This document shows positions 26,251 to 32,240 of a stretch of 64,000 bases of DNA, piece after piece. Under the pieces are notes generated by a model, which made no database searches, was not told the DNA's origin, and worked only from the letters and a program-made list of their open reading frames with translations. Numbering within the stretch: the stretch's first letter is position 1; every line of letters starts with the position of its first letter. A program made the position numbers and the translations under genes. Source of the stretch: Eledone cirrhosa (lineage: Eukaryota); NCBI GenBank assembly GCA_964016885.1, contig OZ024743.1:125240001-125304000 (forward strand). Reading direction: 5' to 3'.

Positions 26251-29229
26251 ATACATATATATATAAATATACATATATATATATATATATATATATATAT
26301 ATATATATATATATATATATATATATATATATATATATATATATATATATATATATATATATATATATATTCATATACATATATATATGTACATATACAT
26401 ATACATATATGTATATATATGTATATATACATATATATATATGTATATATATATACATATGTATATATACATATATATAGATATGCATATATATATATAT
26501 ATATATATATATATATATACATATATATATATATATTAGGTATATTAGGTATAGGATTATCCAACGTGTAGTACCACCGTCGAAACACTTGTAAGCACAC
26601 GGAATAAATTACCTTTTTATGATGTCTACCTGTTATTATTCATTCTTTATATATATATATATGTATATATATATATATGTATACATATATATATATATAT
26701 ATATATATATATATATATATATATATATATATATATATATATATATATATGTATATATATATATATATATATATATATATATATATATATATATATATAT
26801 ATATATATATATGTATGTATATATATATATATATATATATATATATATATATATATATATATATATATATATATATATGTATATATATATACATATATAT
26901 ATATATATATATATGTATATATATATACATATATATATATATATATATATATTTATATATATATATATATATATATATATATATATATATATATATATAT
27001 ATATATATGTATATATATATTTATACATATATATATATACATATACATATATATATATATATATATATACATATACATATATATATATATATACATATAC
27101 ATATATGTATATATACATATATATATATATATATATATATATATATATATATATATATATACATACATATATATATATATATACATGTATATATATATAT
27201 ATATATATATATATATATATATATGTATGTATATATATATATATATATATATATATGTATACATATATATATGTATGTATATATATATCTATATATATAT
27301 ATATGTATACATATATATATATATATATATATATATGTATATATATGTATATATATATATATATATATATATATATATATATATATATACATATATATAC
27401 ATATATACATATATATATATATATATATATATATATATATATATATATATATATATATATATATATATATATATATATATATATATATATAAGCCTCAAT
27501 GTGGTTGTTCGAATTACTAGAAATAATAACTAAATTTCTTGAGCTTCAATAGAGCAGATGGAAAATACCTCGGGGTAAAGGATGCTTCTTTAAATATACA
27601 CATAACTGAGATTATCCACGCAATTAGTAAAGCAAAGTTCCGTTTTGAGTATTCAAAGGTTTAAAACAGCACACAAGGGGGAAATAACTCCTATAAGATC
27701 ATTTGATCAAAATTATTGGAAACCACAAGAATGGGGTGGATTTAGTCTTTAAAGCCAGCTGGTAAATGTAACGGACATGATTCGGTCATATTACAACTTC
27801 TCGACGAAGTATACTCTGCTAGTTTAACAAGTCGCTAGATGACATGCTAGGTCATTTCTATGTTTACCTATTATTCTAATTTCTATACTGTCTATGTCAC
27901 CGTAGTCTTATTGTCTGGCATGTTCGTATAGTATATATCAATATTCGTGTGAATCTGCTGAAAATATCACACACACACATATATATATATATATATATAT
28001 ATATATATATATATATATATATGTATATATATGTGTATATATATATATATATATATATATATATATATATATATATATATATATATATATATATATATAT
28101 ATATATATATATATATATATATATATATATACATATATATGTATATATATGTATATATATATATATATATATATATATATATATATATATATATATATAT
28201 GTATGTATATGTATATATATAAATATATATGTTTATATATATATATGTATATATATATATATATATATATATATATATATATGTTTATATATATATATAT
28301 ATATATATATATATATATATATATATATATATACATATATATATATATACATATATATATATATATACATATATATGTATACATATATACATATATATAT
28401 ATACATATATATATATATATACATATATATATGTATATATATATATATATACATATACATATATACATATATATATATGTATATGTATATATATATATAC
28501 ATATATATATATATATGTATATGTATATATATATATACATATATATATATATATATATATACATATATACATATATATATATATATATATATATATATAT
28601 ATATATATATATATATATATATATATATACATATATACGCATATATACATATATATATATACATATATATATATATACATATATATATATATATATATAT
28701 ATATATATATATATATATATATATATATATATATATATATATATATATATATATATATATATATATATATATATACGAGATCTATATATATACGCGTGTT
28801 GAAGTATAAAGACGTGTTTTCACTTCTCTGCCCGAGTAAGCAGCAAGTCACACAGCTACAAAACAAAACCAAACAAACCAAATTGACCGGTAATTTATAT
28901 TTACATACATCTATATTCTTATATATTTGAAACCACGTGTTTACCAACTTGTGAGTACATTTTCCTTTAACTACAAATTATTATATACTTTCGTCTTTTC
29001 ATTAATTTCATTAATTTCAAACAACCAAATAACCAGAATATATTTATATATATATATGGTCATATTTATATATACACTTCTCACTCACACACAAGAAAAA
29101 CAAATATATTGAAATACTTAACTAAAGCACACACACACACACACACACACACACACACACACACACACACACACACACACACACACACACACACACACAC
29201 ACACACACACACACACACTCAAAACTAGA

Positions 29230-30162
29230 ATGGCTAACCAGCAAAAATCCAAACAGAACTGGTCTGATAATGAAATCGACATTCTAATAAACACATGGCA
29301 TTGCCTTACTCAAACAGAAGACATAGATGCTTCATGCCTGAACGACATTGCTAAACGTACAGTTCACCTTTTGAAAACCCGATCTGAACAACAGATTCAA
29401 AATAAATTAAAGCAAATCGAAGTTGCTTTTAAATTAATCAATAAACATTTGGATAAACTACGGTGTGTTGTTTCTGCGGACGCTATCCAGCAGCAGCAAC
29501 AACAGCTACAACAACAACAGCAACAACAACAACAACAGCAACAGCAGCAACAACAAAAACAACAGCAACAACAACAACGACAACAACAACAACAGTGTGA
29601 ACCACTTCTTGATTCATCAACAATGGCCGATCTACTAAATGAAACTATTGACCTCCCAGTAGCCACTGTGTCACAGCAGGAAACGCCTCTTCCTTTCTCT
29701 GCTCCAGCAGTCCAATCATGACCACTGCCAACCACTCCTCTGCCTACTACTACTACTACTACTACATCTTTGCCTATTGCTATCTCAAGGAATTTACCTT
29801 CTAATACCAGTACAAGAACTCTCCCTCCCACAGCCCACAAAGGTCGTCAAAACATACTCAAACTATCATCTACACCTCTCATAACACACACACACACATA
29901 CACACCCACTCGAAACCCAGTCATTTGCCGCTACTCTCTACGCTATATAATATGTACGGATAGTGGCTGCAAATTCACCCATTTACCTAGGACAAAACGG
30001 TCTATCCCCACAAACAGCCACCACCATAATACATACTCTAATTTAACACCAACACAACCACCAATAACTCAAACAAGAAATCCACAAATCTGCCGCTTTT
30101 CCCAGCAAGACGGATTGTGTTTACACCGGGATTGTCCCTTTACCCATCTCCCGGACAAATGA
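29230..30162 (+). pseudogene. Intronless Myb/SANT-like + polyQ + two CCCH zinc-finger ORF with one in-frame TGA (29719-29721)
   Basis: NWSDNEIDILINTW...RSEQQIQNKLKQI (Myb/SANT-like). ORFs 29230-29721 and 29770-30162 share one frame. CRYSLRYIICTDSGCKFTH and CRFSQQDGLCLHRDCPFTH both fit C-x8-C-x4-C-x3-H. Confidence 0.65.
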
Positions 30163-31574
30163 AAATAAAAATAAAAATAAAAGCAAAAACAAAAACCATA
30201 ACCTACATAAAAATAACCACTACCACAGTCACCAACAGTCTCCTAAACAGGAAACTTCTTCCTCTTTTTTAGCCATAATGAATCTGGCAAAAGAACTGGA
30301 AAAAAACATTCGAGCTATCACCCAGCACCACCCTCCACTATCACCCCACTGCACAAACTCCCATTGCTGCCATTAACAAACAAACAAATTACAAACAAAT
30401 ATATATATATATATATATATATATATATATATATATATATATATATATATATATATATATATATATATATATATATGTATAAATATAAATATATATATAT
30501 ATGTGTATATATGTTTATATATATATATATACATATATATATATATATATATATATATATATATATATATATATACATATATATATATATATATATATAT
30601 ATATATATATATATATATATATACATATATATATATACATACATATATATACATATATATATATATATACATATATATACATATATATATATATATACAT
30701 ATATATATATATACATATATATATATATATATATATATATACATATATATATATATACATATATATATATACATATATATATATACATATATATATATAT
30801 ATATACACACATATATATATATACACATATATATATACATATATATATATATATATATATATACATATATATATATATATACATATATATATACACATAT
30901 ATATATATACACATATATATATACATATATATATATACACATATATATATACACACATATATATATAAACATATATATATATATATATATATATACATAC
31001 ATATATATATACATATATATATATATATATATACACATATATATATATATACACATATATATATATATACATATATAAAGGTTAACATATACATAAAGTT
31101 ATAGATATATACATGTTGCAACTGGTCACTTTTAAGCTCTATGAAGAATTAATAAATTTAAAAAATCAGAGCAATATATCATAAATTCTCGCACACACAA
31201 CCCTGCTGACCTTTATCACAACAACGAAAACTTTATTACTACTACACACACACACACACACACACACACACACACACACACACACACACACACACACACA
31301 CACACACACACACACACACACACACACATATTTGTTGTGAAAGAGTCATTTCTCAGTCAGCCGATACAAACCTACATTTGGCGCAAAATCAATTTTTTAC
31401 ATTCACATGACCTCTACCCACCAATCAAAATTGTTTTGACCACACGAATTTTTGCAACACGAATTGGCGCAAAATTTATTTAAATACCGCTGGAGCCACT
31501 TTTTTAACATAAAAACAGGTAGAATTCCCAAAACTAATCAGATCAGAGCAAACATGACGCTCTATCTCAAAATT

Positions 31575-31612
31575 ATTTTTGAAAAGCATTAGAAATGCGC
31601 AACCGGTAAAAC
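31575..31612 (+). ncRNA. Degenerate hammerhead motif (U3:A8; GAAA mutated to GCAA)
   Basis: ttt-TTGAAAA-gcat(tagaa)atgc-GCAA-ccgg-TA-aaa, the same architecture as 2095-2133. Confidence 0.5.
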
Positions 31613-32240
31613 TTAAAACCAAAACTGAATACTAACCAATACAATTACTAATTCTCACTTATTCCAAATTAAACTATTTTTCACTGTGAACAATTTGTCA
31701 GCATTTTCTATTCCGTTTAACAACATATATATATATATATATATATATACATATATATATATATATATATATATATATATATATATATATATATATATAT
31801 ATATATATATATATATATATATAAATATGTATGTATATATATATATATATATATATATATATACATATACATATATATATATATATATATATAAATATGT
31901 TTGTATATATATATATATATATATATATATATATATATATATATATATATACATATACATATATATATATATATATACATATATATATATATATATACAT
32001 ATACATATATATATATATATATATATATATATAGATAGATAGATATAGACATATATATAGACATATATATACATATATATATAGACATATATATATATAG
32101 AAATATATCTATATTTATATATATATATATATATATATATATATATATATATATATATATACATATATATATACATATATATATATATATATATATACAT
32201 ATATATATGTATGTATATATATATATATATATATATATAT

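Follow-up and report, generated by a model that had tools for sequence, protein, structure and literature searches.

In a 64,000-nt stretch of the Eledone cirrhosa genome (contig OZ024743.1, positions 125,240,001 to 125,304,000; hereafter the window), a gene encoding a Myb/SANT-like domain, a polyglutamine (polyQ) tract and two CCCH zinc fingers lies among arrays of TA repeats, upstream of a hammerhead ribozyme (HHR)-like motif. The explanation that we favour, with about evenly balanced confidence, is that positions 28776-30398 of the window are the decayed 5' end (leader, first open reading frame (ORF1) and ORF1/ORF2 junction) of a two-ORF retrotransposon lacking long terminal repeats (non-LTR), and that 31078-31725 is the 3' end of a separate Penelope-like element (PLE). 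The likely junction at 30265-30398 favours a two-ORF retrotransposon, the class of which we infer because ORF2 itself was not seen. The first-pass annotation of this stretch had described a single island marked by TA flanks, with a gene ending at 30162. The frame of about 310 codons with one TGA that it reported at 29230-30162 is real, and contigs and frame analysis indicate that the gene probably continues further. The TA flanks are not distinctive, because the 64-kb window holds 31 TA arrays of at least 60 nt, and the island consists of two units parted by the TA array at 30399-31077.

The proposal that the gene is a member of a mobile multi-copy family is borne out by diverged contigs from four sequencing runs. 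Among the runs with part of 29220-30398 (20 of 24 listed), contigs were aligned from X1, X4, X6 and X7, which represent four organisms (112, 46, 616 and 26 records, respectively), and the small-share runs X8-X20 were left out of the comparison. The aligned contigs show a pattern characteristic of transposable elements, with many diverged copies that fall into at least two subfamilies, distinct at fixed sites. A lone captured retrogene, which had been suggested as another origin, is excluded because the family is multi-copy, with hundreds of diverged contigs and subfamilies. The deep records have depths of 822-2281 (X1) and 527-971 (X7), compared with ~3-14 for other records listed in the same runs; within each of these two runs, some records exceed others 50- to 200-fold in depth, contig depth not being a copy number. 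Relative to deep X1 records, the window copy shows 6 mismatches in 102 letters, 8 in 111 and 2 in 112.

Comparison of the copies suggests that the protein is under selection in active lineages, because its zinc ligands are spared, changes in the Myb part are more often silent and the best-supported indels are in frame. None of the 35 main-frame substitutions listed (40 of 168 rows listed) alters a zinc-ligand Cys or His, and among the same rows 6 of the 11 changes that fall in the Myb part are silent, compared with 3 of 16 linker changes. The two best-supported indels, of 6 nt at 30012 and 3 nt at 30255, keep the frame; a single shallow 2-nt deletion breaks it.

The domain architecture given by the first-pass annotation (a Myb/SANT-like start, polyQ and two C-x8-C-x4-C-x3-H fingers) is recovered, although the Pfam scores lie below their cut-offs. 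Myb_DNA-bind_4 (PF13837) aligns with residues 9-74 at E = 0.0019 (0.00018 on an 87-aa piece), the window protein scoring 19-22.3 bits and thus below the curated cut-off of 27 bits; the same profile matches three of four aligned family members, with a best E of 2e-7. Against a named Myb-like protein from fish, an HH comparison gave E 4.3e-5 (probability 69%). The structure prediction that had been proposed as a check yielded a helical AlphaFold model of moderate quality (pLDDT 71, pTM 0.48; helices at residues 13-28, 34-49, 53-72 and 74-86), with no significant match in two fold searches using this model or in a sequence search of the PDB, and a search of NCBIfam gave no match. Homologues among 1.84 billion representatives amount to four proteins, namely three assembly proteins and the fish Myb-like protein. 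The three close homologues (P0002-P0004; 39-49% identity) are unnamed single-member clusters, two of which also carry polyQ after the Myb domain. No annotated full-length relative was found for the full read-through protein among 3194 candidates of 171-545 aa. The Myb alignment likewise matched none of 6619 proteins of 276-2000 aa, which is weak evidence, and none of 595 metagenome, 592 viral and 113 genome contigs.

Both fingers show the ligand spacing of CCCH zinc fingers, C-x(6-14)-C-x(4-5)-C-x3-H, and they are 50% identical to each other over 30 aa. The zf-CCCH_2 profile matches them at E 0.0026 and 0.00053, both below its cut-off, and their atlas neighbours are CCCH families at 0.82-0.85, a lead only, as every atlas match is below 0.9. 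Profile searches found no capsid or CCHC domain. Three matches obtained with the CCCH and C-terminal pieces in locus scans (L005-L007) are unrelated, viral or prokaryote-like chance matches. Myb/SANT-like domains bind DNA and CCCH fingers bind RNA, and these functions are predicted for the protein described here.

The internal TGA had been regarded as either decay or a readthrough codon. The deepest record across it (depth 1575) fits 29609-29719 over letters 1-111 of its 113, the last two, from 29720, not fitting; similar clipping occurs at 29921, where listed mismatches account for it, and two further records span codon 164 gap-free. The end of the deep contig indicates that the TGA is probably decay private to the window copy. 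Readthrough is disfavoured because the fit of the deep contig ends at the middle base of the codon and the reading frame of this copy is, in addition, broken close to the A-rich repeat (30157-30195). The same contig end speaks against a UGA conserved across copies, as in the selenoproteins of Naiad PLEs, and no selenocysteine insertion sequence (SECIS) reached the Rfam gathering score, no search aimed at SECIS having been made. The window copy is probably dead, because it has gained a stop, its frame is broken and ORF2 is lost at the TA array.

In other copies, the gene likely extends to 30376, running through the heptamer at 30265-71. The frame at 30149-30376 has its first ATG no earlier than 30278, and in two of the three contigs that cross the A-rich repeat a net indel unites it with the frame of the fingers. 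The heptamer, U_UUU_UUA, is kept in both variants with readable letters (one from X6, one from X7), and codon shuffles put the chance of finding it in phase at 0.022 in the whole ORF and at 0.003 within its final 50 codons; another shifty heptamer, A_AAA_AAC, lies at 30301. U_UUU_UUA is the frameshift site of human immunodeficiency virus (HIV) (PMC5009743). Upstream, a stop at 30244-46 closes the -1 frame, and in the loose contig ends that continue past 30384-91 the frame matching it is open in four of four tested, with a stop in the ORF1 frame in three of the four. Furthermore, depth from ~30260 onwards rises several- to many-fold in X1, X4 and X6 and ~2-fold in X7, and seven records among those listed start at 30260-66, which would follow if a constrained overlap were common to many diverged families. 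The sequence pattern of the junction had no match in two DNA collections. An ORF2 of the long interspersed nuclear element (LINE) type, which the first-pass annotation had named among the cases that would refute its proposal, is at least as likely as one of the PLE type. The loose ends were also considered as the start of a Hydra-clade reverse transcriptase (RT), a possibility unsupported by the N-termini of homologues (KN[IV][PS] in 30 of 108, some internal).

In the model that we favour, the intact element would comprise a leader, an ORF1 of ~380 aa, a -1 junction and ORF2. The ORF1 protein would act as a nucleic-acid chaperone, its CCCH fingers coating the element RNA and its Myb/SANT domain contacting target-site DNA or chromatin. 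At U_UUU_UUA, a minor fraction of the ribosomes would shift by -1 and enter the ATG-less ORF2, which likely encodes an endonuclease and a reverse transcriptase, yielding abundant ORF1 protein and scarce ORF1-ORF2 fusion. In the window copy, a stop and a break in the frame would have arisen later and ORF2 would have been lost at the TA array, and a Penelope-like 3' end would have inserted into the same array. The features on which this model is built are listed in Table 1.

Table 1. Features of the Myb-CCCH gene unit and of the neighbouring hammerhead-bearing unit (window coordinates).
Feature	Position	Strand	Basis or remarks
5' leader of ORF unit	28776..29229	+	(CA)45 at 29128-29218; begins at TA-array edge
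Main ORF1-like frame	29230..30162	+	ATG start, 310 codons, internal TGA, terminal TGA 30160-62
Myb/SANT-like (trihelix-type) domain, aa 9-74	29254..29451	+	Pfam, HH comparison, AlphaFold, homologues
PolyQ-coding CAA/CAG repeat	29488..29594	+	Repeat and translation
In-frame TGA, codon 164, P/T linker	29719..29721	+	Likely private to window copy
CCCH finger 1	29926..29982	+	C-x8-C-x4-C-x3-H, motif at aa 233
CCCH finger 2	30091..30147	+	C-x8-C-x4-C-x3-H, motif at aa 288
Likely C-terminal part of ORF1	30149..30376	+	One frame off here; TAA at 30374-76
ATG-less -1 frame, likely start of lost ORF2	30247..30398	+	Open up to TA array
In-phase U_UUU_UUA heptamer, predicted -1 frameshift site	30265..30271	+	Frame analysis; splice acceptor as alternative
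TA array in place of the family's continuation	30399..31077	.	Repeat and contig comparison
HHR-bearing unit, likely PLE-type 3' end/pseudo-LTR	31078..31725	+	(CA)42 and two TTGGCGCAAAA repeats (31378, 31464)
Minimal type I U3:A8 hammerhead-like motif	31576..31611	+	Palindromic stem III; core A13 -> C at 31600

Several observations weigh against a decayed LINE-like 5' end next to an independent PLE remnant. At the protein level, the difference in silent share between the Myb part and the linker has p ~0.1 among the 40 of 168 rows listed, with the linker counted one row short. At the junction, one of the three spanning contigs leaves the two frames unjoined, the third frame is likewise open in all four loose ends, no stimulatory RNA structure was found after the heptamer (z ~-0.5), and the letters of the heptamer plus G also suit a splice acceptor. 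No apurinic/apyrimidinic (AP)-endonuclease or RT was matched in 104 frames from 21-64 kb, a set that does not include the RT piece at 51012. The ORF and HHR units lie on the same strand, with GC skews of -0.41 and -0.30, respectively, against -0.19 to +0.09 in five other HHR units. Loss of the 3' part is, moreover, unusual for elements that usually lose their 5' end. Lastly, neither a Myb nor a CCCH type figures in the survey of ORF1s from the Jockey superfamily, and the words CCCH, Myb and SANT are absent from its main text (PMC4120745).

The nature of the downstream unit is supported by its ribozyme-like motif. The U3:A8 motif that had been annotated at 31575 is real, occupying 31576-31611, but its core A13 is a C at 31600. 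In a structural scan, 0.03 such motifs were expected per simulated 50-kb sequence (60 simulations), and the stretch 31537-31610 has three further copies of 77-82% identity at 2055-3023, arranged in tandem and inverted around a PLE RT fragment. Like the island motif, these copies read as minimal type I hammerheads with a U3:A8 core and a palindromic stem III. Across two subfamilies, stems I, II and palindromic III are paired in 40 of 40 cells, and two of ten pairs are compensatory, in a structure derived from the same sequences; the compensatory changes of the island copy lie in stems I and II. The assignment of the ribozyme to the PLE type is upheld by these homologues beside a Hydra-clade PLE fragment and by published work (PMC4209133). 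The U3-A8 variant is known from Schistosoma PLEs as mostly solitary remnants, thought to act as dimers (PMC4209133, PMC6765202). The hammerheads of the Schistosoma Cercyon PLE, whose copies are mostly solitary and derive from truncated PLEs, resemble the island motif in their U3:A8 core, palindromic minimal stem III and dimer type; the differences are shorter stems (3 and 4 bp) and the A13 to C change of the island copy (PMC4209133).

The 56-nt hammerhead monomer folds no better than shuffles (z -0.8), as expected for a dimer-type hammerhead. The invariant G12-A13-A14 core reads GCA at 31599-31601 in the island, against GAA in the three homologues. A13 is essential for hammerhead function, and the island ribozyme is predicted to be inactive because it is without A13 and without a tandem partner. 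Rfam returned nothing at the gathering score and no hammerhead at an E-value of 10 or below, the E-value matches being microsatellite artefacts. The hammerhead pattern was absent from viral contigs, and its four matches in metagenomes were rejected as chance, since they lack stem II. Non-LTR retrozymes are defined by tandemly repeated non-coding units that each include an HHR (bioRxiv 10.64898/2026.07.22.740005); the unit at 31078-31725 has a single HHR. A CCAAT box and the two TTGGCGCAAAA repeats lie upstream of the hammerhead, at 31378-31481, and we take these repeats to be similar to E2F-type promoter sites, possibly those of a pseudo-LTR promoter. In the 5' leader of the ORF unit, 28879-28897 is a near-palindrome around ACCGGT, the same 6-mer as in hammerhead stem III, with no surrounding hammerhead core.

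The hammerhead-like motif likely belongs to a separate Penelope-like insertion. Such motifs occur in 7 of the 23 TA-bounded islands of the window (seven motifs passed a strict scan, and four more came from a looser one); four of the other six HHR-bearing islands carry the motif on the minus strand only, and the probability of a same-strand hammerhead neighbour by chance is ~0.15. Furthermore, the loose ends that continue other copies past 30390 are absent from the HHR unit, and their best match in the window is no better than 10 mismatches in 30. Given this abundance and the missing continuation, any linkage between gene and ribozyme is putative. The main rival, which is unlikely, holds that both units form one two-ORF element, Penelope-like or mobilised by an HHR, with a Myb-CCCH ORF1, a -1 shift, an RT/GIY-YIG ORF2 and a U3:A8 3' end, the middle having been deleted up to an internal TA array. 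Shared strand and similar skew speak for it, as do the bias of the internal array (41 C but no G within 30521-31077) and the HHR homologues that abut a Hydra-clade RT fragment at 2046. On the other side stand the frequency of HHR units between TA arrays and the full-length Hydra-type homologues, most of which have a starting Met of their own 10 residues ahead of KNIP. Among 108 homologues of the PLE RT, none could be aligned to the island, which is missing the family's continuation, and none contains a CCCH motif; the PLE alignment matched none of 13 viral contigs. The 44-kb PLE copy of the window carries no U3:A8 hammerhead motif, and no direct or inverted terminal repeat was found in common between the 5' leader and the 3' end of the island, and thus no pseudo-LTR at both ends of the ORF unit, a trait of endonuclease-bearing (EN+) PLEs. 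Some PLEs with a frameshifted ORF1 are telomeric elements devoid of endonuclease (EN-).

Published PLEs bear on this rival in both directions. Precedents are provided by Chlamys-2_cBra, with an upstream zinc-knuckle ORF and a 3' HHR, and by PLEs in which ORF1 is set off by a frameshift (Fig. 1 legend of PMC8557442). Chlamys-2/5_cBra and the PLE types with frameshifted ORF1 thus resemble the single-element arrangement in these traits, but their ORF1s have a CCHC knuckle or a coiled coil in place of Myb and CCCH, and the host organisms are in part charophyte algae (PMC8557442). Hydra-clade PLEs such as Hydra-1_Obim (2507 bp) are short elements that target (TA)n, with an HHR near the 3' end (~100 nt from it in Hydra-1_Obim), and share RWK, DKT and CxCx5C with homologues of the PLE fragments of the window. 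They differ in having a single ORF and hammerheads that, as listed in the text of PMC8557442, all have C3:G8 cores, and Myb or CCCH is found in none of the 108 homologues. It is unlikely that the island descends from an animal Penelope-like family in which a gag-like Myb/SANT and tandem-CCCH gene is joined by an HIV-type -1 shift to RT/GIY-YIG and followed by a U3:A8 dimeric hammerhead end; in such a family, the ORF1 protein would bridge element RNA to (TA)n DNA, and would perhaps chaperone weak minimal ribozymes.

The T-rich tract with AG at 30271 could instead be a splice acceptor for a downstream ORF, which is compatible with either element class and which we consider quite unlikely. The pyrimidine tract and AG are present in the three variants seen, the missing stimulatory structure is in keeping with splicing, and introns are retained in PLEs (PMC4209133); against this, the loose ends just upstream hold the amino acid pattern of the ORF1 frame, as judged by eye, and there is no ATG ahead of the two donor-like sites in the leader. 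It is very unlikely that the gene is the gag-like beginning of a retrotransposon of the LTR or DIRS type, with the -1 site joining gag and pol: -1 shifts at such heptamers are typical of gag-pol (PMC5009743), yet the terminal repeats and the capsid or CCHC match that such an origin calls for are lacking, and DIRS/Ngaro elements appear to be almost absent in cephalopods in the accessible text of PMC10294476. Just as improbable is an accessory Myb/SANT gene of a Harbinger/PIF-like DNA transposon that has lost its transposase, a reading that agrees with a multi-copy family but for which no terminal inverted repeats (TIRs) were found at the island ends and no transposase or DDE match in the window, the copy being truncated. 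PF13837-type domains are typical of the second ORF of Harbinger elements, and the Harbinger/PIF accessory protein has, like the window gene, an N-terminal domain of this type followed by a low-complexity linker; tandem CCCH fingers, which distinguish the window gene, and a -1 overlap are, to our knowledge, unexpected in that group. A host retrogene or expanded host gene family is extremely unlikely. The frame is intronless, and Myb and CCCH domains are common among host genes, but hundreds of diverged contigs, the failure to find an annotated full-length protein among candidates of either size range and the unnamed single-member clusters of the close homologues argue against it.

The window is rich in remnants of other elements. 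Three PLE fragments lie at 1.5, 36 and 44 kb; their proteins fit the Hydra clade as described in PMC8557442, and the sole species-named homologue, from Octopus bimaculoides, is 53% identical. At 1437-3100, a Hydra-type RT fragment meets U3:A8 hammerhead ends, in tandem and inverted, at a fold-back hairpin at 2046, and a palindrome is centred at ~2508 within this arrangement. The 44-kb PLE (RT thumb, GIY-YIG) is surrounded by very large inverted repeats, 97-100% identical (40460-49561 and 38770-39053/52516-52793), which reflect either a recent PLE inversion or an assembly fold-back. Further C3:G8 hammerhead-like motifs, in short units between TA arrays, occur at 23666(-), 25651/26173(-), 32548/32972(-), 38961(+) and 52608(-); the pairs 25651/26173 and 32548/32972 are partial tandems with periods of ~522 and ~424 nt, similar to pseudo-LTRs or retrozymes. 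The HHR unit at 23427-24134 is bracketed by a ~24-nt repeat resembling a target-site duplication, and 21775-24157 and 27491-27970 share duplicated flanking DNA, 1.9 kb of its central part being deleted. RTE-like RT pieces lie at 12.3 kb and 51.0 kb, and a zf-RVT piece was found at 19.9 kb; at 17606-20408, a 45-nt tandem array coding for a long T/A/I-rich frame precedes an L1/Tx1-like zf-RVT end. A frame at 8203-8781, without Pfam match, resembles a fragment of a hAT-type transposase, and a short stretch at 37358-37385, downstream of a PLE fragment and directly before a 146-nt tandem repeat, we take to resemble the 5' part of U2 small nuclear RNA. An exon-sized match to the dual oxidase maturation factor DuoxA (PF10204, E 1e-9) at 61135-61368 represents a host gene.

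The organization proposed for the gene is closest to that of the ORF1s of two-ORF LINEs (types I-V; Khazina and Weichenrieder, surveyed in PMC4120745), which likewise are modular nucleic-acid-binding first ORFs, here of ~380 aa, between a leader and an overlapping frame. The domains surveyed there are RRM, CCHC, PHD, Tnp22, esterase and zinc finger/leucine zipper, in contrast to the Myb and CCCH of the window gene, which is known here without its ORF2. Invertebrate LINE ORF1s may include types with CCCH fingers, for which the papers searched gave no confirmation. An unclassified I-superfamily LINE clade reported in Octopus is a candidate owner of such an ORF1 (PMC10294476), which the accessible texts of PMC11203168 and PMC10294476 do not describe. 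In the literature searched, with subscription journals and Repbase outside its scope, no paper combined Penelope-like elements, CCCH and hammerheads, and for retrotransposon ORF1s bearing CCCH or Myb the papers listed deal with host factors, apart from a single one on PIF. A Myb/SANT and tandem-CCCH ORF1 tied to ORF2 by a -1 shift was not found in that literature and may be new, unless described in sources beyond that scope (e.g., Repbase entries).

The window copy itself is probably a dead fragment. The family to which it belongs is abundant in at least four organisms and apparently unannotated in the protein collections searched, and would account for a piece of repeat dark matter, probably in cephalopods. 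Retrotransposon ORF1 proteins are assembled from a small set of known modules, to which Myb/SANT and tandem CCCH would add. If ORF2 were an ordinary APE-RT, the gene would represent a new ORF1 type of modest interest. If, on the other hand, ORF2 were a PLE RT, the single-ORF rule for animal EN+ PLEs would be broken, and the ORF1 protein would become a candidate helper for slow PLE ribozymes.

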